Position numbers and translations under genes: made by a program
Assembly: GCA_016839785.1 (NCBI GenBank)
Contig: JAEOTQ010000191.1
Location: forward strand, 1-32,063
DNA: 32,063 bases
Direction: 5' to 3'
Origin: Candidatus Hodarchaeota archaeon
Lineage (GTDB): Archaea; Asgardarchaeota; Heimdallarchaeia; Hodarchaeales; Hodarchaeaceae
Shown: in pieces, positions 2,035 through 30,261 of the stretch
How positions within the stretch are numbered: position 1 is the stretch's first letter
Layout of the letters: each line of letters begins with the position of its first letter
The notes under the pieces: model-generated
Seen by the model: the letters and a program-made list of their open reading frames with translations, nothing else
Told to the model about the DNA's origin: nothing
Database searches by the model: none

Positions 2035-2169
2035 AATGAAACCCGAATGAAATTTGATAGTCTTTTTCGCGAATTACTATAGTACAAGGATATATTTTCT
2101 CCAAATATTCGCTAATCCATACATACAAACAAACTACATGCCTTCTTAAGAACTATTCGAATTGTACAG

Positions 2170-14203: not shown

Positions 14204-14280
14204 AGATAGATTATTAGAAAGTTTAAAGCATATTGACTGGTGAAAAATTTGTATATAAAATAAATAAATGTAGAGTAATA

Positions 14281-15831
14281 ATGATGAACTCAACGAATGA
14301 AATTGTTGACCAAATTAGACAATTCCTCTCAAATTGGCAAGTTTTAACTGACATTGAAGATAGGTATGTATATTCATTTGAGAAGATATATTCTAAAGCA
14401 GCCTATCCATTACCAGATATTGTGGTGAGGATTAATCGACCTGAAGATTCTATAAAATTTTCAGAGTGGATAAAAGATCAGGATCTCACCTTAATTACTA
14501 GAAATTTACGTGGTTCTTGGACTGAAAATGATCATAAAAAAGTAACCATCCTCCTAGATGATATCGTAAGACCTGAAATGAGCAGGATATCAGAGGATCC
14601 AAAGAATTTTAGATATTTGTTTAAGCACAGGATGAATAAAAATGCACATAGTATCTATAATAACATTTCAATGGCTATACATTTTATGATGTCTGAAGAG
14701 AGCTTAAGCACATGTTTACAACGCGATGTTTGGGGAGGATATTGTACTATCACTCCCTCTTATAAGGGAATTGAGACATGGTCTTCTAAAGGAAGATTTC
14801 TCCTAATTAGAGGTTTAACAAGAAGAGATTTAAACCTTTCACAGAAGGTCATTGATGTAATATATGCCTGTAGTAAGTGTGGTAATTGTTTTGGAGAATG
14901 TTTTGAACAAGTAGACTTTCACAAGGCAATTACTCAAATCAGGCAAATTATTGCAGAAAAGAAATTAGCTCCAGAAGTATTTCAAGCGACTGCGAGGAAT
15001 ATCACAACTACTGGAGACCCTGCAGCTACCTCCATTGAAAAGCGTTTTGCATGGTTAAAGAAGGTATCTGATATGAAATTATCGGATAAACCAGACATTC
15101 TCTATTGGGCTGGATGTATGGTCTCATATCGTACTCCTAAATCAGCATTTGCATTTTATAATATTTTAAAAAAGTATCAGGCTGATTTTACAGTTTTGAA
15201 AAAGAACGAAGGATGCTGTGGGTATGTATTATTTTCTTCAGGCTTATGGAAAGAAGCGAAAAAGAATGCAAAAACTATAATCGAAAAAATAGACAAATTA
15301 GGAATTAAACAACTAATTACCCCATGTTCAGGATGTTACTACACATTCACGAAGCTATTTCCAGAGATAGCCGACATTCATCTACCTTGTGAAATTCTCC
15401 ATTCGTCACAATTCATTGAAAATAAATTGAAAAGTGAACAGTTTAGTCTTAAACCAATAAATTCAAGAATCACATATCACGATCCATGTTCACTTGGTAG
15501 ACACTGTGGGGTTTATGACCCCCCTCGTAACATACTGAAAATGATCCCAAATCTCAAAATAACAGAAATGGATCTCAATAGATCTCAAGCACGTTGTTGT
15601 GGAGGGGGAGGTGGATTGTGGAACTACAATCATCAAATTAGTCTAGAAGCGGCATCAACTAGATTGTATGAAGATTTCTTACCATTGAATACCGATATAT
15701 TGACAACAGCTTGTCCACTTTGTCAAATGAACTTCCGAATCACAGCAAAAAGACTTTCTATCCCACTTAAAGTTAATGACATCACAGAAGTAATCGATTC
15801 TGTTTTGATCAGGACTCCTGAAAAGCATTAA
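14281..15831 (+). CDS. Fe-S oxidoreductase with two CCG domains (HdrD/GlcF-like)
   Basis: CSKCGNCFGEC, YWAGC, EGCCG, TPCSGC, YHDPCSLGR, CCGGGGG, TACPLC. The N-terminus resembles the start of FAD-linked oxidases. ATG at 14281 (ORF track TTG 14233). Confidence 0.85.
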   Translation: MMNSTNEIVDQIRQFLSNWQVLTDIEDRYVYSFEKIYSKAAYPLPDIVVRINRPEDSIKFSEWIKDQDLTLITRNLRGSWTENDHKKVTILLDDIVRPEMSRISEDPKNFRYLFKHRMNKNAHSIYNNISMAIHFMMSEESLSTCLQRDVWGGYCTITPSYKGIETWSSKGRFLLIRGLTRRDLNLSQKVIDVIYACSKCGNCFGECFEQVDFHKAITQIRQIIAEKKLAPEVFQATARNITTTGDPAATSIEKRFAWLKKVSDMKLSDKPDILYWAGCMVSYRTPKSAFAFYNILKKYQADFTVLKKNEGCCGYVLFSSGLWKEAKKNAKTIIEKIDKLGIKQLITPCSGCYYTFTKLFPEIADIHLPCEILHSSQFIENKLKSEQFSLKPINSRITYHDPCSLGRHCGVYDPPRNILKMIPNLKITEMDLNRSQARCCGGGGGLWNYNHQISLEAASTRLYEDFLPLNTDILTTACPLCQMNFRITAKRLSIPLKVNDITEVIDSVLIRTPEKH

Positions 15832-16328
15832 GTTGCTGATAGCAATTTCTGCATCAATTCTGAAAACTTCTGGGCTGCAGCTTTACGTTTCAGGAAATTC
15901 ATTGTTGTTGCCTCAATAAATTGAAGTGCTTTGGGTTCACAGTTTTTTACACATAATGGATCTCCATCACAAAGATCGCATTTCTTAATTTGTCCATCTA
16001 TACCTAATATAATCCCACCAAAAGGACAATGAGTAACACACAGCTTACAACCAACACATAAATCATAGTTTATTAGCATAGCTCCTGTATTTTCATCTCT
16101 ATATACGGCTCCCATTGGACAAACAGTCTCACAAATTGGATCTTCACACTGTTGGCACACCATCGGTATGTACACTCCTGAACTTTCCCATTTGATCACT
16201 TGTATTCGAGCATGGGCAGGATTACAAACTTTTTCGTGTTGAAGAGAACACACTGTTTCACATATACGACATCCAGAACATTTTTCAGGATTAACAAATA
16301 GGAATTTTTTCATCAGGGTGTTCTCCAT
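15828..16328 (-). CDS. Polyferredoxin-type 4x[4Fe-4S] electron-transfer subunit of aldehyde oxidoreductase (DmsB/CooF-like)
   Basis: CSGCRICETVC, CQQCEDPICETVCP, CVGCKLCVTHCP, KCDLCDGDPLCVKNC. Starts 1 bp after the aor stop. Confidence 0.9.
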   Translation of the reverse strand: MENTLMKKFLFVNPEKCSGCRICETVCSLQHEKVCNPAHARIQVIKWESSGVYIPMVCQQCEDPICETVCPMGAVYRDENTGAMLINYDLCVGCKLCVTHCPFGGIILGIDGQIKKCDLCDGDPLCVKNCEPKALQFIEATTMNFLKRKAAAQKFSELMQKLLSAT

Positions 16329-16329
16329 T

Positions 16330-18222
16330 TTAGGTCTTTAAAGGTTGTTTGTTTTCTATTCCAAGTTCTCTAAGAGTTTCATCACGAGGAATACCGTTGT
16401 TATCCCATCCATGTAAGGAATAATATTCCTCGATCAACGTATTGAATTTATCTCTATCGATTGTTTTTCCTTTAACAATCGGAAATCCTAATTTTGTTGG
16501 TTCTTTAAAGAAACGTTCGGGTAGTTTATCGTCCTTTCTGGAAAATCCTTCACGATTATTGAACATCCGCTCCACAGTTAGAACCCTTTCACCAATCTCC
16601 ATAATTTGAGGTTTTGAAAGCTTCATACCAGATGTTAAATTAATAAGTTTTGAAAATTCTTCGAATTTTGGAGCATTTACAGCACAAAAAACGGTCTGAA
16701 ACTTACATATACCAATTGAATCTGTGATTGCATATAAAAGTTCTTGCCACCAAACCATACGACTTTTTCCCTTATATGACGTATAATTTGAGGACACGGG
16801 TGCACCATATATCTCTTCTAGGAGTTCTTCTGGGAGTCCATACAGATCTATCGCAGGTCTGCTTCTTAAATGATCTGCCCCTCGCGTTGAAGTTGCGATC
16901 CCTAGTGCTAAACTGGGTGTTGGACGTTCATCGGAATGTAAATTACTCATCCCTTTAATTTGCATAGCATAATACTCTGATTCCTTCCCAATCTTTGCTA
17001 TTGCTGGTAAGAATCCATCAGCAAGTAAATTTCCTAAATAACCTTCTCTTTTGCTAATTTTTTTGATGAGTTCATAAACTGCTTCTTCATTTCCCCACGA
17101 TAGATCAAATCCATCAATCATTTTTTCTGTAAGGAGCTCTTTCTCATAGAGTTCCATAATCCAGGCGATAATGCCCCCAATTTCTAATGTGTCAATCCCA
17201 TATTTGTTCACAAGATGATTGGCAACCAGAACAGTGTCCATTTTCCTACAATCAACCATGGTTCCAAAAGCACCGAGTGAAGTATATTCTGGCCCTTCGC
17301 CAAAGATAGGAGCATATGGTCCTTCTTTTAACACATATCGATGACGACAATGGACACTACAACCATAGCAGCCAGACATACCAATAGTGTATTCATCCAT
17401 TACTTCAGGTTCTAAATTTTCACCATCCTCTAGTAAATTAAGTTGAAAGTTACGTGTTCGAATCAAGCCAGTGGTATTTGTGTTGCTGTAGATTATGAGT
17501 GTCCCCCATTTTGATTGTGCTCGTGCCCATCGTGATCCTGTGATCATATTGTTCATTTCAGAACAATAATCTAATAATTGGTCAGGATATGGAAATTCTA
17601 GATCCATTGTTCCACGAGCTGCAACGGCTTTCAAATTTTTTGACCCCATCACGCATCCCATCCCTGTACGGCCAGCAGCATTCTTCATCCCCGTTCTTAC
17701 ATTTGCATATCGAACAAGATTTTCTCCTGCCTCACCAATAACTAAACTCTTGATCTGTTCGTCATTGTGATCTGATCGGATTTGATCTTGAGTTTCAAAA
17801 GTATCTTTCCCCCATAGATGGGATGCGTCACGGATTTCCACTTCTCCATTATTTATCCAGATATAACTTGGCTTTGCAGCTTTCCCAGTAATCATCAAAT
17901 GATCAAAACCAGCAAATCTTAATTCAGGAGCAAAAAACCCACCAATGTTTGAATCACCTACGGCACCTGTTAAGGGTGATTTTGCTGCAATATCGCACCT
18001 ACCTGCACCAAGAGCAGGAATTCCAGTAAGTAAGCCAGTACCTATGAGTAAAACGTTTTCAGGCCCTAGGGGATCAATACCAGGAGCAATTTGATGATAC
18101 AAATGATACATGTTAATGCCTCTCCCTCCAAGAAATTGATTCCGAAGTGATTTGGAGATTGTTTTAATTTTGAATTTACTTGATGTCAAATCAATATAAG
18201 CAATTTTCCTATTCCAAACCAT
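16330..18222 (-). CDS. aor: Tungsten-dependent aldehyde:ferredoxin oxidoreductase family catalytic subunit
   Basis: LGGRG, KSPLTG, AAGRTGMGCVMGSKNLKA, CYGCSVHC [4Fe-4S], GPEY, GIDT, RGADH, DSIGIC, YYSLHGWDNNGIP. ATG at 18222. Confidence 0.92.
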   Translation of the reverse strand: MVWNRKIAYIDLTSSKFKIKTISKSLRNQFLGGRGINMYHLYHQIAPGIDPLGPENVLLIGTGLLTGIPALGAGRCDIAAKSPLTGAVGDSNIGGFFAPELRFAGFDHLMITGKAAKPSYIWINNGEVEIRDASHLWGKDTFETQDQIRSDHNDEQIKSLVIGEAGENLVRYANVRTGMKNAAGRTGMGCVMGSKNLKAVAARGTMDLEFPYPDQLLDYCSEMNNMITGSRWARAQSKWGTLIIYSNTNTTGLIRTRNFQLNLLEDGENLEPEVMDEYTIGMSGCYGCSVHCRHRYVLKEGPYAPIFGEGPEYTSLGAFGTMVDCRKMDTVLVANHLVNKYGIDTLEIGGIIAWIMELYEKELLTEKMIDGFDLSWGNEEAVYELIKKISKREGYLGNLLADGFLPAIAKIGKESEYYAMQIKGMSNLHSDERPTPSLALGIATSTRGADHLRSRPAIDLYGLPEELLEEIYGAPVSSNYTSYKGKSRMVWWQELLYAITDSIGICKFQTVFCAVNAPKFEEFSKLINLTSGMKLSKPQIMEIGERVLTVERMFNNREGFSRKDDKLPERFFKEPTKLGFPIVKGKTIDRDKFNTLIEEYYSLHGWDNNGIPRDETLRELGIENKQPLKT

Positions 18223-18240
18223 AGTCAAAGCCTCTAACAA

Positions 18241-18387
18241 TTATTTTGCTAATCCACGAATCTTAGGCTGGTCTGGGTTTGGCCAAGAGATTCTATATTT
18301 GGTATTACATTGAGGACATTCAGCTTGTTCAGTATTTAGTTGAACTTGAAAACGGTTCAAACAATTTAAGCATCTAACTTCATTCAT
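18241..18387 (-). CDS. 48-aa zinc-ribbon (CxxC...CxxC) protein, not in the ORF track
   Basis: Hand translation: MNEVRCLNCLNRFQVQLNTEQAECPQCNTKYRISWPNPDQPKIRGLAK*. It has an AGGTG RBS and fills the gap between the MoaD-like gene and aor. Confidence 0.8.
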   Translation of the reverse strand: MNEVRCLNCLNRFQVQLNTEQAECPQCNTKYRISWPNPDQPKIRGLAK

Positions 18388-18402
18388 AACAATAACACCT
18401 TT

Positions 18403-18687
18403 TTAACCCCCACCTACAGGAAGACTGAAAATTAAGACATCCTTATCTTTGATCTTTTCATCAATTTCTCTAATACCTTTTCCATTCAACATCACAAGGA
18501 TATCATTAGAAATTTTATTTGTTTGAGGATTTACAATATTAAAAAAGTCATTTCCGTACTTTTTTGCTAATTCTGCCAAAATTTCTCCAAATGTACAATC
18601 TTCATTAATCTGTTCAACGATTTTTCGTTTTTTAGTAATTTCTCTGAAAGTTGCTTGAAATAGTATTTCTATTTTGCCTGTTATCAT
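18403..18687 (-). CDS. MoaD/ThiS/SAMP-family sulfur carrier (ubiquitin-like fold)
   Basis: FQATFREIT N-terminus, VMLNGK, C-terminal LPVGGG di-glycine. First gene of the aor operon. Confidence 0.88.
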   Translation of the reverse strand: MITGKIEILFQATFREITKKRKIVEQINEDCTFGEILAELAKKYGNDFFNIVNPQTNKISNDILVMLNGKGIREIDEKIKDKDVLIFSLPVGGG

Positions 18688-18826
18688 AATTTTCAATCTC
18701 AAAGCAATAATCTTCAAATGGAATATTGGCATTCTTCAGATTTTTCATATAAAAAATATTTCTGAGCTAAACTGAATTATCAATATATAAGTAGTATCAC
18801 ATAGTGAATCCAATTCAGCCACAAGG

Positions 18827-18853
18827 TATATATATAGTAATACTAATTACTAT
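18827..18853 (+). promoter_or_regulatory. TATA box with abutting perfect palindrome (candidate operator) for the DUF2080-GNAT-bzd operon
   Basis: TATATATA at 18827-18834 followed by ATAGTAAT-ACTA-ATTACTAT (8-bp inverted repeat, 18834-18853). Confidence 0.55.
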
Positions 18854-18924
18854 TTTGACTATTTTAGGAGGGTTCTATTATAACCGAATCTCCTGAGAAA
18901 CAGCTGAAACGTATAGAAAATACG

Positions 18925-19119
18925 GTGAATAACGTGACTGAGCCAGTAGAAGAGTTACATTCGGAATTTATCGTTAAAGGATATGAAATGATTGATAGAG
19001 AAGTAAAACAAAGTGGGAATACAGGCCGTGTTTATTTACCGAAAAACTGGATTGGATCTAAAGTTAAGATCATACGTGTGTCAAAAATAAAGGGAAATTC
19101 AGATAAAATCAATGAGTGA
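18925..19119 (+). CDS. DUF2080-family small protein (AbrB-like swapped hairpin, putative DNA-binding)
   Basis: GYEMIDREVKQSGNTGRVYLPKNWIGSKVKIIR is the typical family pattern. Confidence 0.8.
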   Translation: MNNVTEPVEELHSEFIVKGYEMIDREVKQSGNTGRVYLPKNWIGSKVKIIRVSKIKGNSDKINE

Positions 19120-19586
19120 TAAACAAATATCTTGAGATGATCACTGTGAACACAAATGAGAGTATTATCATTAGAAGAATGAAAGATTCAGATATCGATC
19201 CAATTATCAAAATGGACAAAAGGATTTCAGGTGTTTTCCGACCCGAAATGTGGAAAGCTGAAATTGAGCACTACTTAAAGAATAATAGTATTGGTATTGT
19301 TGCTGAAATTCAAGAGCAAGTTGTAGGATTTATGATTGGTACCATGCATCCTTGGCTTTTTGGTATTGAGAATGGAGGATGGATTGAAGTTCTAGGGGTA
19401 CACCCTGATCATACAGCAAAAGGAGTAGGAAAAAAACTCGGTAATAGACTTTTTAAAGAATTTAAAGCTCACAACATTAAGGTAGCTTATACCTGTGTTG
19501 AATGGACTTCAAGTGACTTATTGGAATTTTTTAGAACCTTGGAAATGACTAAAAGCGATTTTATTACTCTAATGAAAAAGTTATAA
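19116..19586 (+). CDS. GNAT-family acetyltransferase, BadL-like single domain
   Basis: IRRMKDSDIDPIIKMD..SG..R, VVGFMIG, WIEVLGVHPDHTAKGVGKKL acetyl-CoA-binding loop, LLEFFR. The GTG start overlaps the DUF2080 stop; alternative ATG at 19137. Confidence 0.85.
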   Translation: MINKYLEMITVNTNESIIIRRMKDSDIDPIIKMDKRISGVFRPEMWKAEIEHYLKNNSIGIVAEIQEQVVGFMIGTMHPWLFGIENGGWIEVLGVHPDHTAKGVGKKLGNRLFKEFKAHNIKVAYTCVEWTSSDLLEFFRTLEMTKSDFITLMKKL

Positions 19587-19670
19587 TGAACAGAAGTAAG
19601 GTAAAACTCTCAAAGAATGCGAAAAGTAAGACTATGAAAGAAATCTAATTTGATGAAAGGAGTTTATATC

Positions 19671-20819
19671 ATGGTAACTGTGCAGATGGAAGAAAAAGGA
19701 ATATTTGATCAGTTTAAGGATTGGTATACAAATCGTCATGAATACGCAAAAGCTTGGAAAGAAAAGGGTGGTAAGGTAATGGGTTATTTCTGTACTTACG
19801 TACCAGAAGAAATACTCTATGCTGCCAATATACTTCCAGTTCGGATTCTAGGTAGTCATGAACCTCAAGATGTAACAGAACCCCATATTTTTGCAATGTT
19901 CTGTCCATTTTGTCGTGACTGCCTTGCACAAGGATTGAAAGGTCGTTATGATTATCTCGATGGAATTATGATTGCTCAAAGTTGTCTTCATATTAGACAA
20001 ACATACACAAGTTGGGATCTTCATATCCCAACGGATTATAGCTATTATTTGCCTCATCCAATGCATGTACAAAGTCCTCAAGCTACCCCTTACTTGCGAG
20101 AGGAGTTGATTCAATTCAAAAAATCTGTTGAAGATTGGATAGATAAACCTATTACTAATTATGATTTAAAAAGGGGAATCGAAATAATGAATGCAAATCG
20201 ACGTTTAATGAATCAAGTGTATGAGCTTAGAAAAAAACGCAATCCACCTGTTACAGGTTTAGAAGCCATGTATATGGTTGTATCAAGTCAAATGACAGAT
20301 AAACATGAACATAACCGTGAACTAGAATCACTCCTTCAAAAGCTCTCCACACGTGATATAGGTGACCCTGGAGAGAGATTAATGATTATAGGGTCTGAAG
20401 ATGATGATACAGAGTTTTTAGCAATGGTCGAAGATCTAGGTGCAACTTTTGTGACTGATGACCATTGTACTGGTACCCGCTATTTCCAAGAAGAGGTAAA
20501 TCCATCTGAAGACTTATTGAATGCAATAGCAGAACGATATGTGAAACGAGTACCCTGTCCGAGTAAAGATTGGCCGAAACGCACTAGACTTGATCACATT
20601 ATACGAATGAGCAAAGAATATGATGTACAAGGAGCAATATTGATTCAACAGAAATTTTGTGATCCACACGAATTAGATACTCCCGCAATAAAAGAAGAAT
20701 TAGAAAAAAATGGAATTGCAACTTTATTTCTGGAATTTGATGTTACTGTACCAATTGGCCAGTTTAAAACCCGTGTGGAGGCGTTTCTTGAAATAATGCG
20801 AGAGGAGGATTTGTTTTAG
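19671..20819 (+). CDS. bzdN: Benzoyl-CoA reductase, bzd-type, subunit N
   Basis: [76 protein letters not shown] at 19671 after AAGGAG. Confidence 0.93.
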
Positions 20820-20830
20820 GAGGAATTAAG

Positions 20831-22144
20831 ATGAGTACTACAAAATATCCTAGTGAGAGATTAAAAAGCTGGGGAAAAGCGAAAACACTTCGTGAGAATT
20901 ATTACAGAGACTTCGCAGAAGCTCATGATAAAGGAGGAATTCGTTGGGCTGGAGGTGCTTGGTCTTTCGATGCTATTCCTGCTGGTTTGGGTGAAGATGT
21001 TTGGTGCTTAACAGGGGAACCTTATGGAGCAACCGTAGCATTTAATAAAGAATTAGCTTTGGAATGTCAAGAAGCTATTGAAACTAAAGGTTTCGCGAGA
21101 GACCTTTGTTCATACATGCGTAATTATTGGGGGTCAATCATTCTTAATAAATACGCCTGGCCACAATACTCGGAGGAATTCCCTAAACCTGATTTTATGT
21201 GGCAAGATCATATATGCTGTTCACATGCAAAATGGTATCAGGTTGCTAGTGACCTTGAAGGAGGGATTCCAACGTTTAGCATTGATGTATCAGTAGGTCC
21301 TTATGAAGAATTAACTGAAAGCAGACTAAATTATATTGTTGGTCAAATGCATGATGGCATAAAATGGCTAGAAAAAACAACAAGTAGAGATTACAACGAT
21401 GAACTCCTGATTAAAGCAGTTCAAAATGAATTTCGTACATGTCATTATTGGGCTGCGATTTGTGAGCTAAATAAAACAATACCTGCACCCTTAGATGAAA
21501 AATCTATGTATGCATTATACGTCTTAGGCACACTAAGAAAGTCTTCACAGTGGACAGCAGATTATTATGAGAAAGAACTATATCCTGAGATTAAAGATCG
21601 AGTGAAGCGAGGAATAGCTGCTGTTGAAAACGAGCAATGTCGTATTATGACCGATACACAACCTCCATGGGCATTCCTAAAAGTTTTCCGTTATTTAGAA
21701 AAATATGGTTGTGTTTCAATAGGAAGTCTGTATACCTTCTCACTCATTGGTTTATGGGAAGATAAAGAAGATGGCACATGGGGACCAAGATCCATTCCCG
21801 AGATTGAAATAACAAATCGAGATGAAGCTTTGCGAGCTCTAGCTGAATGGAATTTAAGCAAACCAGAATGGCAGCACTTCTATCATCCAAAATTGAAATC
21901 TGAAATGATGATTCGGATTGCACGTGAATGGAAACTTGATGGAGTTCTTCTGCACTTTAATAGAGGTTGTGAAGGCTTAAGTCTTGGTATCGCAGAAAAT
22001 CGTTTAGCGATTCAGAAAGCTGGATTTCCAGTAATGCCATTTGAAGGTAATATGGGGGATGAAAGAGAATTCGACCTAACTAGAACAATGGCACGAATAG
22101 ACGCATTCATGGAAAGTCTTGGAATGAAAAAATTAGTTGATTAA
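20831..22144 (+). CDS. bzdO: Benzoyl-CoA reductase, bzd-type, subunit O
   Basis: [75 protein letters not shown]. Confidence 0.93.
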
Positions 22145-22159
22145 CAACGGTGAATTCTT

Positions 22160-22948
22160 ATGACAACAATTGGAATTGATTTAGGAGCAAAAAATACGAA
22201 AGTAGTGATATTAAGGGACGGTGAAATTCTGACTACTGCCTCGGTTCTAAGTGGATTTGATCAAAAAGCTTCTGCGGATGAAGCTGTAAACAACGCATTG
22301 AGAAATGTTGGAATAGCTCGTGATGAAATTAAATACATCACAGCAACAGGAGCAGGGATGGATGCTATTACTTTCGCAAATGATACAGTGACTGAAATAA
22401 GTGCAAATGCACGTGGAATAACTGCAGTTTTTCCTTCCGTACGTACTGTAATTGATGTTGGCGCCGAAGAAGGGCGAGTAATTCGTTTAAATGAGAACGG
22501 AAAGGTTGTAGATTTTGGGATAAATGAAAAATGTGCTGCAGGCGCAGGTGCTTTCACAGAAGCCATGGCAAGAGCCTTGGAAGTTGATCTGGAAAAAATG
22601 GGAGAAATGTCATTGAAATCTACAAAAGCAGTTCCTATGAACGCACAATGTACTATTTTCGCAGAATCAGAAGTTGTCTCATTAATCCACCAAAAAACAC
22701 CGAAGGAAGATATTATTCGAGCAGTACATGACGCTATTGCCGATCGAATCACTAGCATGGCTCGTAGAGTCGGTATTGAGAAAGAAGTAGCTCTAGTTGG
22801 GGGAGTTGCTAATAATATTGGATTTGTTGATTCAATGACACGAAACCTTGGATACGATCTTCTGGTGCCTAAAGATCCTGTAGTGCCAGAGTTTATACCA
22901 GCTTATGGAGCCGCTCTTTTAGCTCAGGATGAATTGAATGGAGGATAA
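22160..22948 (+). CDS. bzdP: Benzoyl-CoA reductase ATPase subunit P
   Basis: ASKHA motifs GIDLGAKNTK and IDVGAEEGR; cluster ligands NEKCAAGAG and AQCTIFAESE; position between bzdO and bzdQ. Confidence 0.88.
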   Translation: MTTIGIDLGAKNTKVVILRDGEILTTASVLSGFDQKASADEAVNNALRNVGIARDEIKYITATGAGMDAITFANDTVTEISANARGITAVFPSVRTVIDVGAEEGRVIRLNENGKVVDFGINEKCAAGAGAFTEAMARALEVDLEKMGEMSLKSTKAVPMNAQCTIFAESEVVSLIHQKTPKEDIIRAVHDAIADRITSMARRVGIEKEVALVGGVANNIGFVDSMTRNLGYDLLVPKDPVVPEFIPAYGAALLAQDELNGG

Positions 22949-22952
22949 AAAC

Positions 22953-23834
22953 ATGGCTAATTCAGAAAGTAAAGAGTATTGGAGATGGACTGAATCGCGT
23001 TGGACCAATCCAGATCTTGATTGGAAAGACGGAGATATAATTTCCGCAGGAGTAGATGTAGGTTCAGTTAGTACACAATCGGTTGTTATGGTTGATGGTG
23101 AATTATTTTGTTATGCTAATATGAGAACTGGAAGTGATAGCCCAGATAGTGCAAATAATTCAATGAACTGGGCATTAGATGGGACTGGTCTTCCTTTGGA
23201 TAAAATCGAATATGCTGTAGGTACAGGTTATGGCCGTGTAAACGTTCCTTTCGCAAAACGAGCCCTCACCGAAATTGCCTGCCATGCTCGTGGGGCTAAT
23301 TTTATGTACGGTCCTTCAATTCGTACAGTACTAGACATGGGAGGCCAAGATTGTAAAGCAATACGTTGTGACCATCGAGGTAAAGTTACTGCATTTTTAA
23401 TGAATGACAAATGCGCCGCAGGAACAGGAAGAGGCATGGAAGTGTTCGCAGATCTTCTTCAGATCCATATTAATGATGTAGGACGAATGTCGTTAGTTGA
23501 TGTAGAACCAGAACCAGTAAGTAGTACTTGTGTTGTTTTTGCTAAATCCGAAGCAGTTGCCTTGCTACGAAAAGGATGGAGCAAAGAAAAAGTCTTAGCT
23601 GCTTATTGTGGAGCAATGGCTCATCGTGTTGTAACTCTTCTAGAACGACTTGGAGTGGAAAATGATTTCGCAATCACAGGAGGAATTGCGAAAAATATTG
23701 GCGTTGTATCTCGAATTGAAAAGGAATTAAAGGTCACTGCTCCTGAACCAAGTATTGATCCACAACTTGCTGGTGCTATAGGTGGTGCTTTGTTTGGGAA
23801 AGCTCTGGTTGAAAAAGCTAGAAAGAAGGCTTAA
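22953..23834 (+). CDS. bzdQ: Benzoyl-CoA reductase ATPase subunit Q
   Basis: BzdQ-like N-terminus EYWRWTESRW..DWK, AGVDVGSVS, TEIACHARG, DMGGQDCK, MNDKCAAGTGRG, SSTCVVFAKSE. ATG at 22953 after GGAGG. Confidence 0.92.
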   Translation: MANSESKEYWRWTESRWTNPDLDWKDGDIISAGVDVGSVSTQSVVMVDGELFCYANMRTGSDSPDSANNSMNWALDGTGLPLDKIEYAVGTGYGRVNVPFAKRALTEIACHARGANFMYGPSIRTVLDMGGQDCKAIRCDHRGKVTAFLMNDKCAAGTGRGMEVFADLLQIHINDVGRMSLVDVEPEPVSSTCVVFAKSEAVALLRKGWSKEKVLAAYCGAMAHRVVTLLERLGVENDFAITGGIAKNIGVVSRIEKELKVTAPEPSIDPQLAGAIGGALFGKALVEKARKKA

Positions 23835-23872: not shown

Positions 23873-24160
23873 ATGAAAGCAAATTACGGCTATAAAGACG
23901 GTTCGGGAGAATATTATATCACTATTGACACCGAACTCTGCAATGGATGCACTAAATGTGTCGAAGCCTGCCCTGAAAATGTCTTGGAAGTAGTTGAAAA
24001 TGAAATGGATCCTTTAGCGGAGGATCTCGTGGCAAGGGTTTCTGATGAGCATCGTAAGAAAATTAAATATTCCTGTGCTCCTTGCAAACCTACTACTGAA
24101 CCAAGAACTCTACCTTGTGTTCAAAGTTGTGAACCTGGTGCTATTTCCCATTCATGGTAA
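23873..24160 (+). CDS. bzdM: Ferredoxin of the benzoyl-CoA reductase (BzdM-type)
   Basis: MKANYGYKDGSGEYYITID..CNGCTKCVEACP..KIKYSCAPCKP..LPCVQSC..AISHSW. Confidence 0.88.
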   Translation: MKANYGYKDGSGEYYITIDTELCNGCTKCVEACPENVLEVVENEMDPLAEDLVARVSDEHRKKIKYSCAPCKPTTEPRTLPCVQSCEPGAISHSW

Positions 24161-24238: not shown

Positions 24239-26764
24239 ATGGAAAAAGTCAATATCACGATAAATGGTGCAGATTATTCTGTAGAAAAGGGAATATCAAT
24301 ACTGGAAGCAGCAGAAGTTTCTGAAATCTATATACCACGACTTTGTGCACATCCTGACTTATCATCTGCTCAAGGAATGAAACCAGTAGAATCTGTGTAC
24401 CAAGGTACGGTACAGTACAAAACTGATAATTCTTTACAAGAACATGAGGGGTGCCAACTTTGTATGGTGAAAATAGAAGGAGAGGAAGAGCTAGTAACAT
24501 CATGTAACAGAATGACAGAAGAAAATTTGAAGATTTGGACGGATACCTCCGATATCAAAGATTATCGGAGAGAGAAAATGAAGAATATTCTCTCAAGACA
24601 CCGTCATGCCTGTTTAACTTGTACTCAACAGAAAGGATGCAGTCGTGAACCTTGTTCAACGAATGTTCCAGTAGAAGAAAGATGTTGTCCAGAATTTGGA
24701 CGATGTGAATTGCAGAAAGTTGCAGAATACATTGGAATCAGAGAAGATACACCACGTTATATACCCAAGGAATTAACTGTAATTGAGGATGAACCTCTAT
24801 TTATTCGAAATTATGAGCTATGTATTGGTTGTACCCGATGTGTAAGAATATGTCGGGATGTAAAGGGAGTAGATGCACTTGGTTTCGTTTTTTCAGATGG
24901 TGAAACGATCGTAGGAAGTATTGAATCTACATTAAAAGAATCAGGATGTAAATTCTGTGGTGCTTGTGTAGAAGTATGTCCGACAGGCGCGCTATCAGAC
25001 AAAGATATTCTTTGGGCTGAACGTGAACGAGCTCTTGTTCCATGTCGCGATAATTGCCCTTTAGAAGCGGATGTTCCCCGTTATATTCGTCATATCGCTA
25101 ATAGAAATTTTGATCAAGCTGCGGCAGTTATTCGAGAGAAAACTCCTTTTCCTTCAGTACTTGGGAGGATTTGTTTTCATGTATGCGAGGAAAGCTGTCG
25201 TCGGAGTCAGATTAACGAACCAATTGCTATATGTGCACTCAAACGATTTGCCCTAAATCATGATTCAGAACCATGGAAATCACAAAGATTTACTATACCC
25301 TCTACAGGGAAAAAGATCGCAGTTGTAGGTTCTGGACCAACTGGACTCACTGCTGCTTTTTATTTAGCGAAAGCTGGCCATTCATTAACGGTATTTGAAG
25401 CTGAAGCAAACCTGGGAGGTATGCTGAGTTTTGGTATACCAAAGTATAGATTACCAAGAGAAATCCTTCAGAAAGATCTTGAATATATTTTGAACTCAGG
25501 AATAGAAATAGAAACTGATGCGATTATTGGAAAGCAATTAACTCTCGCGGATCTGGATTCTCAAGGATATGAGGCAATATTTCTAGCAATTGGGGCTCAA
25601 CAGGCAAAAAAATTGAGAATTGATGGTATAGAATCTGATAACGTGCTTTGGGGATTGGATTTTCTAAAGAATGTTAATTCAAATCTTGAAACTAAGGTAG
25701 AAGAACATGTCCTTGTTATAGGTGGAGGAAATGTTGCAATGGATGTAGCATTAACTGCTCTTCGACAAGGGGCAAGTAAAGTCCAAGTATTCTGCTTAGA
25801 ATCTAGAGAAGAGATGCCAGCCCACGAATGGGAGATTACAGAAATATTAGATGAAGGAATTGATCTTAATTGTTCATGGGGACCCTATAAGATAATTGGA
25901 AAGGATGGAAAAGTGACTGGAGTCGAATTAATTAAATGTACTAGTGTCTTTGATACCAAAGGAAATTTCAACCCTATTTTTGACGATACAATAATACATT
26001 CTGTTGATACTGACATGATAATACTGGCAATCGGACAAAAGACCGATTTATCGGTTTTAAGCACGAAAGCTGATGTCGATCTCTCTCCTGAAGGATTTGT
26101 TAGAATTAAAGAAACCACTCTAGAAACTTCCACTCCAGGAGTGTTTGCAGGAGGAGAAGTGACAGAAGGGCCCATTTCCGTTGTTGAAGCAATTGAATTA
26201 GGTCGAAAGGCTGCTCGTTCAATTGATAAATACTTAGGAGGAACTGGTGAAATCAATGAAGAACTCACAGAAGACATGGCTTCTAACCAATGGATTGGAC
26301 GTGATAAAGATTTTTACGACAAAAAACGTGTTATAATGCCAAGTTTATCAATTTCAGATCGTTTAAAAGGCTATGATGAAATAGAATTAGGTTACAATGA
26401 AGAGATGGCTGTTGAAGAAGCAGAACGATGTTTAGAATGTGATCTAAGGCTCCAGATATCATCTGTAACTTTTCCCCCAGAGAAATGGATCGAATTGTTG
26501 AAAGAGAATTTGGCAGCTGTTCCTGAAAGTGAAGGCGCGTTTCATCTTTTTGACGAAAATAAACAAATCATACTCATTCAAGGAACACAAAATCTGCAAT
26601 TTGCATTAGAAGAGCAATTAATTAGTAATCCAAAAGCTCGCTACTTTAGTTACGAGGAAGATCCCATGTATACTAAGAAAGAGAGTGAATTATTGCAGGA
26701 ATTCATGCTAGAATTCGGAAGAATGCCAGAGGGCAATGATGATCTGCAGGATGATCTTTTTTAA
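24239..26764 (+). CDS. bzdV: BzdV-like NAD(P)H:ferredoxin oxidoreductase (NuoG-like Fe-S module + GltD-like flavoprotein + C-terminal extra domain)
   Basis: [2Fe-2S] PRLC..CQLC..TSC, HRHACLTC, CIGCTRCVRIC, CKFCGACVEVCP, GltD-type PCRDNCP and ICFHVCEESC, VVGSGPTG, VIGGGNVAMD. Directly follows bzdM. Confidence 0.8.
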   Translation: MEKVNITINGADYSVEKGISILEAAEVSEIYIPRLCAHPDLSSAQGMKPVESVYQGTVQYKTDNSLQEHEGCQLCMVKIEGEEELVTSCNRMTEENLKIWTDTSDIKDYRREKMKNILSRHRHACLTCTQQKGCSREPCSTNVPVEERCCPEFGRCELQKVAEYIGIREDTPRYIPKELTVIEDEPLFIRNYELCIGCTRCVRICRDVKGVDALGFVFSDGETIVGSIESTLKESGCKFCGACVEVCPTGALSDKDILWAERERALVPCRDNCPLEADVPRYIRHIANRNFDQAAAVIREKTPFPSVLGRICFHVCEESCRRSQINEPIAICALKRFALNHDSEPWKSQRFTIPSTGKKIAVVGSGPTGLTAAFYLAKAGHSLTVFEAEANLGGMLSFGIPKYRLPREILQKDLEYILNSGIEIETDAIIGKQLTLADLDSQGYEAIFLAIGAQQAKKLRIDGIESDNVLWGLDFLKNVNSNLETKVEEHVLVIGGGNVAMDVALTALRQGASKVQVFCLESREEMPAHEWEITEILDEGIDLNCSWGPYKIIGKDGKVTGVELIKCTSVFDTKGNFNPIFDDTIIHSVDTDMIILAIGQKTDLSVLSTKADVDLSPEGFVRIKETTLETSTPGVFAGGEVTEGPISVVEAIELGRKAARSIDKYLGGTGEINEELTEDMASNQWIGRDKDFYDKKRVIMPSLSISDRLKGYDEIELGYNEEMAVEEAERCLECDLRLQISSVTFPPEKWIELLKENLAAVPESEGAFHLFDENKQIILIQGTQNLQFALEEQLISNPKARYFSYEEDPMYTKKESELLQEFMLEFGRMPEGNDDLQDDLF

Positions 26765-28201: not shown

Positions 28202-28993
28202 TTACTTATTTTGTCCTTCATTAGCATAGATTGCCGCTCCTAATGCAACAAATGATTGAGGAGATTGAGGAACAGAAACAGATTTTCCTAATAGCTCTTC
28301 AAATATATTTACGATGACTGGATTGTGTGCGATAACCCCGCCTGTTAAAACAACTCTATTATCTAAACTGTCAATTTCTATAACTCGGTTGACTATAGAA
28401 TAAAATGCTCCTCGAACCATATCCTCGACTTTTGCTCCTTCTCTTATACGACTTAAAATTTCAGTTCCAGCAAACACTGTACAATAGCTACTAATTTTTA
28501 CAGGGTTTCTGGATTGTTCCCCAAGGTGATTTAACTCTTTGAGATCTATTCGTAATTTTAGGGCAAGTTCTTCAAGAAATGTACCTGTCCCAGCTGCACA
28601 CTTCCGATTCATCTTGAAACTGAAACGTTTGCCGCCTTTTATTTTAATTATCTTGGTATCTTGCCCTCCTATGTCGATAATTGTAATGTCATCCTTTGGA
28701 TATAGATATTTTGCCGCCTTTGCAGAACATGAAATTTCTGTAATATTCGAGATAGAGAAATCCTCAAGATGCGCATTCTTACGACCGAAGCCTGTTGTTA
28801 CAATATTTTTAACTTGATTCTTTTTCTTTTCGGTTGAAAGAGACTCTTCTAGTGCTTTATATGCCGCGTCTCTTAAGTTTATTCCTGAATGTACAACACT
28901 CAATCCTACTACCTTTTTTTCGGCATTAATTAAAATAGCCTTAGTAAAAGAAGAGCCAATATCAATTCCTGCAAAGAGTGAGTTATCAGACAC
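28202..28993 (-). CDS. Acyl-CoA dehydratase activase / BcrAD-BadFG-family ATPase (HgdC-like)
   Basis: GIDIGSSFTK, TTGFGR, IDIGGQDTK, MNRKCAAGTG, SSYCTVFA, LTGG, ALGAA. Confidence 0.9.
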   Translation of the reverse strand: MSDNSLFAGIDIGSSFTKAILINAEKKVVGLSVVHSGINLRDAAYKALEESLSTEKKKNQVKNIVTTGFGRKNAHLEDFSISNITEISCSAKAAKYLYPKDDITIIDIGGQDTKIIKIKGGKRFSFKMNRKCAAGTGTFLEELALKLRIDLKELNHLGEQSRNPVKISSYCTVFAGTEILSRIREGAKVEDMVRGAFYSIVNRVIEIDSLDNRVVLTGGVIAHNPVIVNIFEELLGKSVSVPQSPQSFVALGAAIYANEGQNK

Positions 28994-29034
28994 AGATTAT
29001 TCTCCATTTTGGTCATTATACTTGTATTACTCTT

Positions 29035-30261
29035 TTAAATTCCTGCAAGTTGTTCAATAAATGCTTCAATATTTGTTTTAGTTTGTTCCTCACTGTAAAC
29101 ATTTAAATCATTAAGATCAGCATCGATTTGTAAAGAGGGAATTCCTGTCTGATTTTGTAAACGTTTTGGCATCCCATAATTTGTGTTGGAATTATTTGGG
29201 CAAGTCCTAGCATTATGGTATATCATTCCATCAACGCTAAATTTATCCATCATTTTTTTTAGATATTTTTCTTTGCTGGATTCAGATCTATTTATGAATA
29301 ATTCAGTGTATGCTTTTGCCATACTCCTGAAAGGTTCTTGTGGATTGAAATCACTGAAGATCCAACTATTACAATAAGTTGACGCAACAATACACGTCTT
29401 CAATTCTGAAAATTGATTAGATAATGCTCTTAATTTTCCCCAGATAGGCATTCCTTCCCAAAAACATCTAAATGATTCCTCTACAACGGCTGCAATTCCG
29501 TTTTCAATCCTGAGTTTGAGTTCTTGTTCTAGCTTATCATAATATTCAACTGCAATTTCTGTTCCTCGTAAAACTACTGCAGGAAGCATATGAATACAGC
29601 CATCAAAAAACGTTAAAGGTGAGGGAATAGACGAGGCTGTTTCTAAGACAGAATTCCATTTATTACTGCACTCAAGTGAAAGTTGCAGCCTAAGTTCTAA
29701 CTTTTTTCTTTCAAAACTCTGATCTGTGATTTTTTCAAGTGTTTCTGAAATCTTTTTTATCTGTTCTTCCACAGTTTTAACATGAGTGTTAGATAATTCA
29801 TCAATGAAGGTAGGGGAATTTATTCCTAGGATTGGGACTTGAAATTCTTTTGCATAATATTTAAACCAATCTTGTACATCACGACATTGATTTGTGTTAT
29901 AAATGAGAATATCTGGTTTTGGTACTTTTTCTATACCATAGGCTCTCTTTAATCCTGTTTCCTTTTTTATATAAGCACCTATGTCACTCGTGAGATAAGA
30001 ACATATTTCTGGGGAATAACCCTGAGCCACTGCTACTGGAATGTATTTATTTGCACTTCGACTAGCGCCTAAAATGGCGGTATGATTTTCTGGATAATAT
30101 ACGTTGTAATCAAATGCTAATAGGAGTTCTGCGGGGCCTACACTAGAACACCAAGCAATGTTTTTACGTGGATCTTTTGACGCTTTATCCAAATTCTGAT
30201 AGTATTCTGTAGCTATTTTTCTAAGTTCGTGGGCAGATTTAATCTCATTTTCGGGGGTCAT
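29035..30261 (-). CDS. 2-hydroxyacyl-CoA dehydratase / benzoyl-CoA reductase beta-type subunit (HgdAB/FldBC family)
   Basis: AWCSSVGPAELL, YPENH, GYSPEICSY, NTNQC, WEGMPIW, DGMIYHNARTC, IDADLND, TNIEAFIEQL. Confidence 0.88.
   Translation of the reverse strand: MTPENEIKSAHELRKIATEYYQNLDKASKDPRKNIAWCSSVGPAELLLAFDYNVYYPENHTAILGASRSANKYIPVAVAQGYSPEICSYLTSDIGAYIKKETGLKRAYGIEKVPKPDILIYNTNQCRDVQDWFKYYAKEFQVPILGINSPTFIDELSNTHVKTVEEQIKKISETLEKITDQSFERKKLELRLQLSLECSNKWNSVLETASSIPSPLTFFDGCIHMLPAVVLRGTEIAVEYYDKLEQELKLRIENGIAAVVEESFRCFWEGMPIWGKLRALSNQFSELKTCIVASTYCNSWIFSDFNPQEPFRSMAKAYTELFINRSESSKEKYLKKMMDKFSVDGMIYHNARTCPNNSNTNYGMPKRLQNQTGIPSLQIDADLNDLNVYSEEQTKTNIEAFIEQLAGI

Follow-up and report, generated by a model that had tools for sequence, protein, structure and literature searches.

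A DUF2080–GNAT gene pair at the head of aryl-CoA ring-reductase operons in Archaea and Bacteria: a candidate regulatory module

Results

The gene pair and the reductase operon

We analyzed a 32,063-nucleotide contig of a Candidatus Hodarchaeota archaeon (GenBank assembly GCA_016839785.1, contig JAEOTQ010000191.1; contig C171 of a 4.04 Mb genome that is 84.5% complete), hereafter called the window, in which a gene for a small DUF2080 protein and a gene for a GNAT acetyltransferase precede the genes of a benzoyl-CoA reductase. A preliminary description of this DNA had proposed the pair as a regulatory module of the reductase. The genes at issue are the following.

18925–19119, plus strand: DUF2080 gene; GTG start, 64 residues; PF09853 24.6 bits (cut-off 21.5), NF033496 67.6 bits (cut-off 22).
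19137–19586 (or 19116–19586), plus strand: GNAT acetyltransferase gene; 149 residues from a conserved ATG, 156 residues from the GTG at 19116; PF00583 40.1 bits (cut-off 20.7).
19653–20819, plus strand: bzdN; TIGR03190 484.9 bits (cut-off 453.8).
20831–22144, plus strand: bzdO; TIGR03191 690.6 bits (cut-off 448.6).
22160–22948, plus strand: bzdP-like ATPase subunit gene (second BcrAD-type ATPase); PF01869 174.7 bits, TIGR00241 224 bits.
22938–23834, plus strand: bzdQ; TIGR03192 421.8 bits (cut-off 380.2).
23873–24160, plus strand: ferredoxin gene; Fer4 families; syntenic in 9 of 11 related loci, those that reach that far.
24239–26764, plus strand: gene for an 841-residue Fe-S/flavin NAD(P) oxidoreductase; Pfam and NCBIfam matches; syntenic in 9 of 11 related loci, those that reach that far.

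Both open reading frames (ORFs) of the pair score above the cut-offs of their families and lie directly upstream of bzdN, as the preliminary description had it. The genes that follow have the make-up of a Bzd-type class I operon: bzdN, bzdO, and bzdQ exceed the NCBIfam equivalog cut-offs and stand in order, together with the second ATPase subunit gene and the ferredoxin gene. The 841-residue oxidoreductase is the probable enzyme that regenerates the electron donor. The bzdN ORF opens with a TTG at 19650 and offers ATGs at 19653 and 19671, with AAAGGAG located 8 nucleotides (nt) before the second of these. Pfam scans of 31 window ORFs found no Rrf2, MarR, or XRE-type regulator, in agreement with the earlier statement that the locus lacks a recognizable BzdR-, BadR-, or BadM-like protein; the minus-strand ORF at 1429–2034 resembles MsvR only weakly (21 bits, cut-off 220).

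The two genes of the pair had been described as overlapping in a GTGA. This tetranucleotide is present, but its GTG is kept at the corresponding position in only 3 of 12 orthologous loci, whereas the ATG within a conserved GAGATG (19137) occurs in 12 of 12. The GNAT start is therefore more likely 19137, with the genes adjacent rather than overlapping. In the 12 loci the GAGATG start sits 14 to 43 nt past the DUF2080 stop codon; the spacer in the window is 17 nt.

Linkage to two classes of ring reductase

The order DUF2080–GNAT–bzdN–bzdO is kept in all 11 related Hodarchaeales/Heimdall loci that we fetched with the GNAT, and bzdP, bzdQ, the ferredoxin gene, and the oxidoreductase gene are also kept in the nine loci whose stretch extends further. 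Identities across the related loci are 81 to 90% for BzdN, 69 to 81% for the GNAT (11 loci), and 67 to 90% for DUF2080 (11 loci). The gap between the GNAT gene and bzdN has a median of 32 nt (14 loci) and measures 66 to 84 nt in the window. At two loci (L013 and L014), the AOR neighborhood found upstream of the pair in the window is absent or displaced, and the pair is still found with bzd. Among 83 genomes of the class, bzdN scored above its cut-off in 15 places in 14 genomes, and coordinate comparison placed a DUF2080 gene 600 to 700 nt upstream on the same strand at all 15; DUF2080 itself is present in 30 of the 83.

A pattern scan of species-representative genomes yielded at least 598 relatives of the window DUF2080 protein, of which we examined the best 80 loci. 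This sample, which includes a few near-duplicates (e.g., L118/L119), describes the relatives nearest to the window protein and not the approximately 520 others. Many of its loci belong to Thermodesulfobacteriota (Desulfarculaceae, Desulfobacterales, Syntrophorhabdus, and Syntrophaceae), with Thermoplasmatota and Methanomassiliicoccales in addition. A GNAT gene lies within 200 nt downstream of DUF2080 in 67 of the 80 and upstream, in the manner of a second Asgard type described below, in 3; the remaining 10 have no GNAT gene. After the 67 downstream pairs come genes for a BamB-type AOR-like protein with 4Fe-4S and CCG proteins (29 loci), close bzd genes (19 loci), distant bzd-like genes (5 loci), or none of these in the stretch (14 loci, where several contigs end). 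At two more loci, DUF2080 stands directly ahead of an AOR-like (bamB) gene. In total, 55 of the 80 loci lead into a benzoyl-CoA reductase operon, either of the ATP-dependent Bzd type or of the tungsten-containing Bam type. The AOR-like protein of locus L108 is an orthologue of BamB, the class II active-site subunit (1175 bits to PDB 4z3w_A), and approximately 31 of the AOR-like genes are at least 55% identical to it. The other contexts of the pair are mostly those of acyl-CoA metabolism, with CoA-transferases, CoA ligases, ETF, and acid transporters. At some loci of the Desulfarculaceae type (L133, L153, L163, L149, and L258), a tandem of two DUF2080(–GNAT) copies, 1 to 4 kb in extent, precedes bzd genes.

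We also examined the linkage in the reverse direction, starting from the best 80 of at least 587 bamB loci, picked by BamB alone, of which 67 had at least 800 nt of upstream sequence. DUF2080–GNAT lies immediately upstream of bamB in 12 of these 67 and DUF2080 alone in 6; in 10 the pair or a part of it lies elsewhere within 10 kb, and in 39 neither gene is found within 10 kb. The upstream genes at bamB loci without the pair include TetR-family regulators (eight seen) and, in a Geobacteraceae metagenome-assembled genome, one GNAT plus Rrf2 pair. DUF2080–GNAT thus fills the slot that is held at other bamB loci by TetR-type or by GNAT plus Rrf2 (BadL/BadM-like) regulators. Upstream of bamB at L170, L172, and L182, the TetR-family proteins are long (418 to 435 residues), with two TetR_N domains each. 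With 11 of 11 related loci, 15 of 15 bzdN places, and 55 of the 80 closest DUF2080 loci, the co-occurrence with reductase clusters on which the preliminary description had staked its proposal is strongly positive.

A phased repeat that accompanies DUF2080

Upstream of DUF2080, the hexamer TTGACA is present in 41 of 54 non-Asgard loci, often after a run of T, and is followed in most of the loci shown by repeat units in tandem (e.g., TTATAGTTAAn or TGTAGCTACA). We represented these units by the degenerate 8-mer [AT][AG]TA[GA][CT][TC]A (TRTAGYTA), derived from these loci, and counted it in the 300 nt upstream of DUF2080. It occurs 195 times in these 16.2 kb (12.0 per kb) compared with 187 times in the other 403 kb of these loci (0.46 per kb). 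Successive forward copies are exactly 11 nt apart in 57 of 80 pairs, and at least two forward copies are found in 37 of the 54 loci, at least three in 23. In the Thermoplasmatota loci, the units lie just ahead of a Shine–Dalgarno-like sequence and the start codon.

The same 8-mer is found before bamB when the pair is not there. In the 400 nt upstream of bamB at the 39 loci without the pair its density is 4.68 per kb, with arrays in 20 of the 39, and arrays precede all six bamB loci that have DUF2080 alone upstream. We tested 10 of the 20 genomes that have such bamB arrays and no nearby pair, and found DUF2080 encoded elsewhere in 10 of 10; they hold 16 DUF2080 loci, 12 of them GNAT-paired and some located before bzdN. 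Among control genomes, in which the bamB promoter has no phased array, 2 of 10 encode DUF2080, and none of the five in which bamB is headed by a TetR gene do so (Fisher's exact test for 10/10 versus 2/10, p = 0.0007). Because the arrays track the presence of DUF2080 in the genome, this comparison is our main argument that DUF2080 may be the factor that reads the repeats.

In the gaps between GNAT and bamB, with a median of approximately 115 nt, the 8-mer is not enriched (0.85 per kb), and the bam genes may therefore have promoters of their own. At L121 and L146 a second promoter, of the T-run/TTGAGA type, stands in this gap ahead of the inverted repeat GTGTAAATATTCACA; together they may represent a separate bamB promoter and operator.

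The promoter region of the window

Alignment of the region ahead of the pair with its orthologues delimits the following features.

18790–18809, no strand assigned: conserved upstream element AGTAGTATCACATAGTGAAT; present in 5 to 6 of the 6 nearest orthologous promoters, with variable flanking intergenic columns.
18827–18836, plus strand: TATA-like run TATATATATA; kept in the six nearest loci, approximately 30 nt ahead of the invariant GGAGG.
18834–18853, no strand assigned: inverted repeat ATAGTAAT-ACTA-ATTACTAT; 8-nt arms, 100% complementary; candidate DUF2080 site.
18867–18872, plus strand: GGAGGG; its GGAGG (18867–18871) is invariant in all aligned promoters, 58 to 67 nt ahead of the annotated start in 12 of 12 loci.
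18868–18924, plus strand: leader in the DUF2080 frame; open from GGAGG to GTG, with a conserved peptide, in 12 of 12 loci.

From its position, TATATATATA is the probable archaeal TATA box of a DUF2080–GNAT–bzd transcription unit. By eye, the upstream element AGTAGTATCACATAGTGAAT looks like two TAG-centered units 10 nt apart that resemble the TRTAGYTA repeats, and the half-site ATAGTAAT and an ATAGTGA at 18801–18807 likewise resemble the unit. The half-site and ATAGTGA are placed on or after the TATA-like run, as in Thermoplasmatota.

The preliminary description had taken the palindrome as the binding site of DUF2080. The inverted repeat exists as described, with fully complementary arms. In an alignment of the window with 10 other promoters, the left arm ATAGTAAT and the adjoining TATATATA run are kept in the six nearest loci only, and the right arm ATTACTAT is not conserved in the 10. 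We therefore do not regard the palindrome as a conserved operator; the element conserved elsewhere is the phased direct repeat. ATAGTRAT occurs four times in the window (3.4 expected), and two of the four form the inverted repeat. A third exact ATAGTAAT is found at 2073–2080 (minus strand), approximately 40 nt upstream of the ORF with the weak MsvR-like match, where it may stand by chance.

Since the frame is open and the peptide conserved back to GGAGG in all 12 loci, DUF2080 may be approximately 19 residues longer at its N terminus than annotated. Translation would then begin at a noncanonical start codon: an Ile codon (GTG in L007) lies 7 to 9 nt past GGAGG in most of the 12 loci.

The DUF2080 protein

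DUF2080 proteins are small (approximately 50 to 80 residues), with the core pattern SGN(S/T)GR(V/I)YLP..W.G..VK..R. PF09853 is matched by 36 of 36 aligned relatives, and the residues E21, V27, S30, G31, G34, R35, Y37, L38, P39, W42, G44, V47, and R51 are invariant in these 36 sequences from three phyla. The family carries the name "transposon-associated," a label with no counterpart in the window, where scans of 31 ORFs found no transposase family and the gene's neighbors are a ThiS-like gene and the GNAT gene; among the 80 closest loci, 70 have a GNAT gene next to DUF2080.

The protein had been called AbrB-like. Weak matches to PF04014 (MazE_antitoxin) below the cut-off are found in 28 of the 36 members (best E-value 0.0033), with the window protein at 14.4 bits against a cut-off of 24.7, and an hhalign comparison with 18 Asgard PF04014 (AbrB/MazE) domains gave 59.5% probability over 13 columns, which set SGNxGRVYLPxxW against xxxxGqItIPKxi. 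The AlphaFold2 model of the monomer (mean predicted local distance difference test score 78.1) has two strands. A Foldseek search of this model against PDB gave nothing at E ≤ 0.001, with a weak row to the designed DZBB barrel, and a VIA wide fold search gave no chain with Z ≥ 2, although a monomer model of an intertwined dimer may not be comparable in such searches. The AbrB-like character of DUF2080 is plausible but unproven.

The GNAT partner

Residues G96 and G98 of the GNAT, which we take to belong to the acetyl-CoA-binding loop (G-x-G), are invariant in 32 sequences. We built a hidden Markov model (HMM) from 32 DUF2080-linked GNATs. It scores the two GNATs of the window's own genome at 185.6 bits (copy 1) and 161.7 bits (copy 2), the GNAT of L203 at 115.5 bits, and the Rrf2-paired GNAT that lies beside bamB at L238 at 105.9 bits, whereas no other GNAT of this genome exceeds 57.6 bits. 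By this measure the DUF2080-linked GNAT is nearer to the Rrf2-paired protein than to the unrelated GNATs of its own genome, and hhalign aligned L238 to the family over 148 columns with 99.7% probability. The likeness to BadL drawn in the preliminary description is therefore apt, and from its Rrf2 neighbor L238 would be a true BadL orthologue. A search among proteins of similar length with the Asgard GNAT alignment returned Asgard GNATs as its named rows and none named BadL or BamK among the matches listed.

In a maximum likelihood tree of 75 rows (in which the genes of L097, L141, and L144 are doubled by split hits), the DUF2080-linked GNATs form one group (support 95/82), with L238 outside it. 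The labels bamB and bzdN each require at least five changes on this tree, which indicates that the link to the two unrelated reductases arose or switched repeatedly.

Against PDB, the GNAT profile gave as its 60 best matches entries named as generic small GNATs, e.g., YpeA, Naa-type proteins, and RimI; none of the 60 bears a toxin name. No window protein matched a PADLOC family. A search for fused or longer GNAT relatives (294 to 2000 residues) found none at E ≤ 1e-8, which is weak evidence.

Other copies in Asgard genomes

A second pair is encoded in the same genome on contig C161 (963–1596 of locus L001) in the reversed order, with a 157-residue GNAT followed by a 48-residue DUF2080. Its GNAT is 27% identical to the first. 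This pair is flanked by genes for an M28-type peptidase and a HEAT-repeat protein, without reductase genes, and the arrangement recurs in synteny at 19 loci of the genus. Across these loci, identity is 90 to 100% for the DUF2080 of this pair compared with 44 to 85% for the flanking genes. The promoter of the second pair showed no TRTAGYTA arrays; what is conserved there is another inverted repeat, whose arms flank an AT-rich box. DUF2080 copies number one or two per genome, at syntenic sites, in 19 of 21 genus members. Four genomes of the genus without bzdN (G050, G053, G059, and G068) have the other DUF2080 copy only, and a further genome (G064) carries a lone DUF2080 in addition.

In a sister Heimdall family (L039–L046, L112, L136, and L157), a lone DUF2080 gene lies beside MoaC and MoaB/MogA-type genes of the molybdenum cofactor with no GNAT, and an ORF for a small membrane protein often follows. 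At G060/G061 (L245 lies on contig C89 of G060) and at L091/L092, the pair heads a four-gene reductase whose subunits are 22 to 25% identical to BzdN/BzdO where compared. Identity of this divergent reductase to the ATPase subunits is 32 to 42% (L245, L091, and L092), and it may be a different type of aryl-CoA reductase.

Neighboring genes of the window

Upstream of the pair, a divergent block (14233–18732) encodes a ThiS/MoaD-like protein, a zinc-ribbon protein, an AOR, and a 4Fe-4S protein, along with an opposed CCG-domain protein. Of the 11 related loci, 9 keep the AOR part in synteny, and the CCG gene was seen in 5. The domain make-up of the block is that of BamBCD. We considered the window AOR as a BamB and rejected this assignment: its nearest relative is a Pyrococcus-type AOR (354 bits), and the BamB match is confined to the N-terminal third. 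We likewise rejected the idea that the pair is part of the divergent ThiS–AOR operon, as L013 and L014 retain DUF2080–GNAT–bzd despite their altered upstream neighborhood.

At 28202–30261 (minus strand), genes for an HGD-D protein and a BcrAD-type ATPase form a second activase/dehydratase-like pair, adjoined by a ketopantoate-reductase-like gene. Metatranscriptome contigs (two runs of one study, with small shares) cover pieces of bzdN within 19645–20300 and no part of the DUF2080 or GNAT genes.

Discussion

DUF2080–GNAT is most likely an undescribed on/off switch for ring-reductase genes. On balance, we favor a module in which DUF2080 acts as a repressor on phased repeats and a BadL-related GNAT serves as the maker or sensor of the signal, controlling aryl-CoA ring-reductase operons. 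DUF2080 would bind DNA at sites that, in bacteria and Thermoplasmatota, consist of tandem TRTAGYTA units at 11-nt spacing. The bacterial repeats would overlap the −10/start region of a near-consensus promoter and the archaeal ones would follow the TATA box and precede the start codon; in the window, the candidate sites would be ATAGTGA at 18801–18807 and the two inverted ATAGTAAT units at 18834–18853. The GNAT might set the state of the repressor in either of two ways, by acylating a small molecule that then serves as effector, on the model of BadL and BadM, or by binding an acyl-CoA (e.g., benzoyl-CoA or acetyl-CoA) and acting on DUF2080. The pair is probably cotranscribed with bzdNOPQ in the window, and we propose on this ground that the unit is autoregulated and substrate-induced.

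A bolder form of the proposal, which we put forward tentatively and would not yet back over its opposite, is that a β-hairpin protein of approximately 50 residues reads the 11-bp phased repeats in a state set by the GNAT and governs a dearomatization regulon in both Bacteria and Archaea. Such a regulator would work on σ70 and on TATA/TFB promoters alike and would have moved between the domains with either reductase class.

Several observations weigh against the favored repressor–GNAT module. The module is frequent but optional, as the 39 of 67 bamB loci with neither gene within 10 kb illustrate. DUF2080 and GNAT must also have a wider role, because the second Asgard pair and the lone copies beside MoaC and MoaB genes are unlinked to ring reductases. 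The enrichment of the 8-mer was measured on the very loci that had supplied the pattern, and the GNAT-to-bamB gaps show no enrichment. Both genome groups in the co-occurrence comparison were picked by us from motif counts, among genomes that are incomplete, related, and non-independent, and the controls comprise nine loci with fewer than two hits and one, L170, with two scattered hits. The motif evidence in the window itself is weak, since ATAGTRAT occurs there at chance frequency and the right arm of the palindrome varies. At the protein level, the similarity to AbrB/MazE appears to be confined to a motif, the structural model has found no match among solved folds, and DNA binding by DUF2080 proteins is a deduction rather than an experimental observation. 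The proposal of a regulatory module tied to reductase genes accordingly keeps its co-occurrence, its regulator slot, and its promoter repeats, and loses exclusivity, since the pair is not restricted to bzd.

The pair might instead be a type II toxin–antitoxin system, as the preliminary description had noted, with a GNAT toxin that acetylates charged tRNA and DUF2080 as antitoxin and autorepressor, stabilizing mobile aromatic-degradation islands. A small upstream gene closely spaced from a gene for a GNAT of approximately 150 residues has the look of such a system, both gene orders occur in one genome, and DUF2080 members have weak PF04014 matches. Moreover, a DUF2080-domain protein is validated as an antitoxin to nuclease toxins (PMC10440598), and CalpT joins MazF-like and DUF2080 domains (bioRxiv 10.1101/2024.05.08.593097). 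We nevertheless consider this explanation improbable. Toxin–antitoxin pairs are usually patchy and mobile, whereas this pair keeps its place ahead of the first reductase gene from phylum to phylum; copy number is low (one or two in 19 of 21 genus members) and the sites are syntenic; and DUF2080 is unusually conserved, its second copy far more so than the flanking genes. The lack of PADLOC matches among window proteins and of toxin names among the 60 best PDB matches points the same way, as does the kinship of the GNAT, whose nearest distinct relative is BadL-like and Rrf2-paired. Operator-like arrays also stand before bamB genes that are far from any pair.

Those distant arrays bear on two further explanations. 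The GNAT could be a pathway or housekeeping enzyme that acetylates aminobenzoates, aromatic amines, or proteins in detoxification or metabolism, with DUF2080 regulating the pair only and the linkage reflecting shared substrates. The pairs beside CoA-transferases, CoA ligases, ETF, and acid transporters would fit this, as would the motif-free gaps of approximately 115 nt before bamB and the reductase-free pair of this genome. We find it unlikely, if slightly less so than a toxin–antitoxin system, because arrays stand before bamB itself in 20 of the 39 pair-less loci and track DUF2080 in the genome, bzd-linked pairs lie only approximately 32 nt from bzdN, and all six bamB loci with a lone DUF2080 immediately upstream have arrays. 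Alternatively, another factor could bind the TRTAGYTA arrays, with DUF2080 as a small adaptor for, or inhibitor of, either the GNAT or the proteins that feed electrons to the reductase. The absence of a DNA-binding fold match for the monomer model, the mere 13 columns of AbrB similarity, and the occurrence of DUF2080 in two of the 10 array-less genomes are in line with a role away from DNA. Against it stand the 10/10 versus 2/10 co-occurrence, the arrays upstream of DUF2080 in 37 of 54 loci and at six of six DUF2080-only bamB loci, and the fact that the two reductase classes have no common subunit for an adaptor to act on; we give it as little credence as the toxin–antitoxin system.

The repressor–GNAT module that we favor shares features with known systems. 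To our knowledge, the regulation of ring reductases is known only in a few cultured Proteobacteria (BzdR, BadR/BadM/BadL, BamVW, and BgeR). In Azoarcus/Aromatoleum sp. CIB, BzdR-PN is a benzoyl-CoA-responsive repressor of bzdNOPQ and a single protein that joins a helix-turn-helix domain to a shikimate-kinase-like domain. There, as at the locus described here, a regulator gene heads a bzd-type operon and operator sites (here candidate sites) lie over the promoter; in contrast, profile scans found no protein of the helix-turn-helix plus shikimate-kinase-like kind in the window. In the GNAT toxin–antitoxin pairs TacAT, AtaRT, KacAT, and ItaRT, the antitoxins are ribbon-helix-helix/DUF1778 proteins. 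The likeness to these lies in two close genes for a small protein and a GNAT of approximately 150 residues; the pair studied here differs in that the partner matches DUF2080 only, the position before the reductase is fixed, and no defense or toxin family is matched.

The closest parallel is with BadL and BadM. In Rhodopseudomonas palustris, BadM leaves the badDEFGAB promoter in response to acetamidobenzoates, which are products of BadL (PMC6191541). Each system joins the gene for a small GNAT to that for a small regulator, located at benzoyl-CoA reductase genes. They differ in that the partner here is DUF2080 and not Rrf2, a family with no member in the window; that the DUF2080-linked GNATs form a clade apart from L238; and that the candidate operator is a phased direct repeat. 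In the bam cluster of Geobacter metallireducens, growth on benzoate induces bamK (Gmet_2077), listed as an "N-acetyltransferase," 21.8-fold (Butler et al. 2007, PMC1924859); here too a class II reductase cluster contains a GNAT gene, a parallel drawn from the published description.

DUF2080 is the antitoxin domain in NetFlax (PMC10440598) and the C-terminal domain of CalpT (bioRxiv 10.1101/2024.05.08.593097), the same Pfam family as the window protein; there, in defense contexts, DUF2080 accompanies nuclease toxins or is fused to a MazF-like domain, with no GNAT and no catabolic operon. According to the paper on ORM2a, such a GNAT/transposase-associated pair lies beside bamQ; neither protein turned up in the proteome, and the authors did not consider the pair further. 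The mentions of AbrB that we found in papers on benzoyl-CoA reductase all cite Bullows et al. 2024 (PMC11497800), who describe a classical AbrB whose target in Geotalea daltonii is rpoN, a separate subject from DUF2080. Our literature search, whose scope was the papers without their supplements, found nothing on DUF2080 in aromatic degradation and no published proposal of DUF2080–GNAT as a ring-reductase regulator.

Reduction of the benzene ring is the key and energetically costly step of anaerobic aromatic degradation. The proposal is directly testable, because cultured carriers of the pair exist: Desulfocarbo indianensis (L163) and Dethiosulfatarculus sandiegensis (L105). If it is true, a family labeled "transposon-associated" would gain a function; in the bolder form of the proposal, DUF2080 would be a new family of sequence-specific DNA-binding proteins rather than a transposon accessory, and the GNAT would be a sensor of acyl-CoA or aromatic acids rather than a bulk enzyme. 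The reductase operons of Asgard archaea, of Thermoplasmatota, and of many sulfate-reducing and syntrophic Thermodesulfobacteriota would gain a candidate regulator, along with a promoter/operator signature with which aromatic-degradation regulons could be predicted in metagenomes. The principle established for BadL, control by acylation of a small molecule, would then extend to a different DNA-binding partner and to the archaea.

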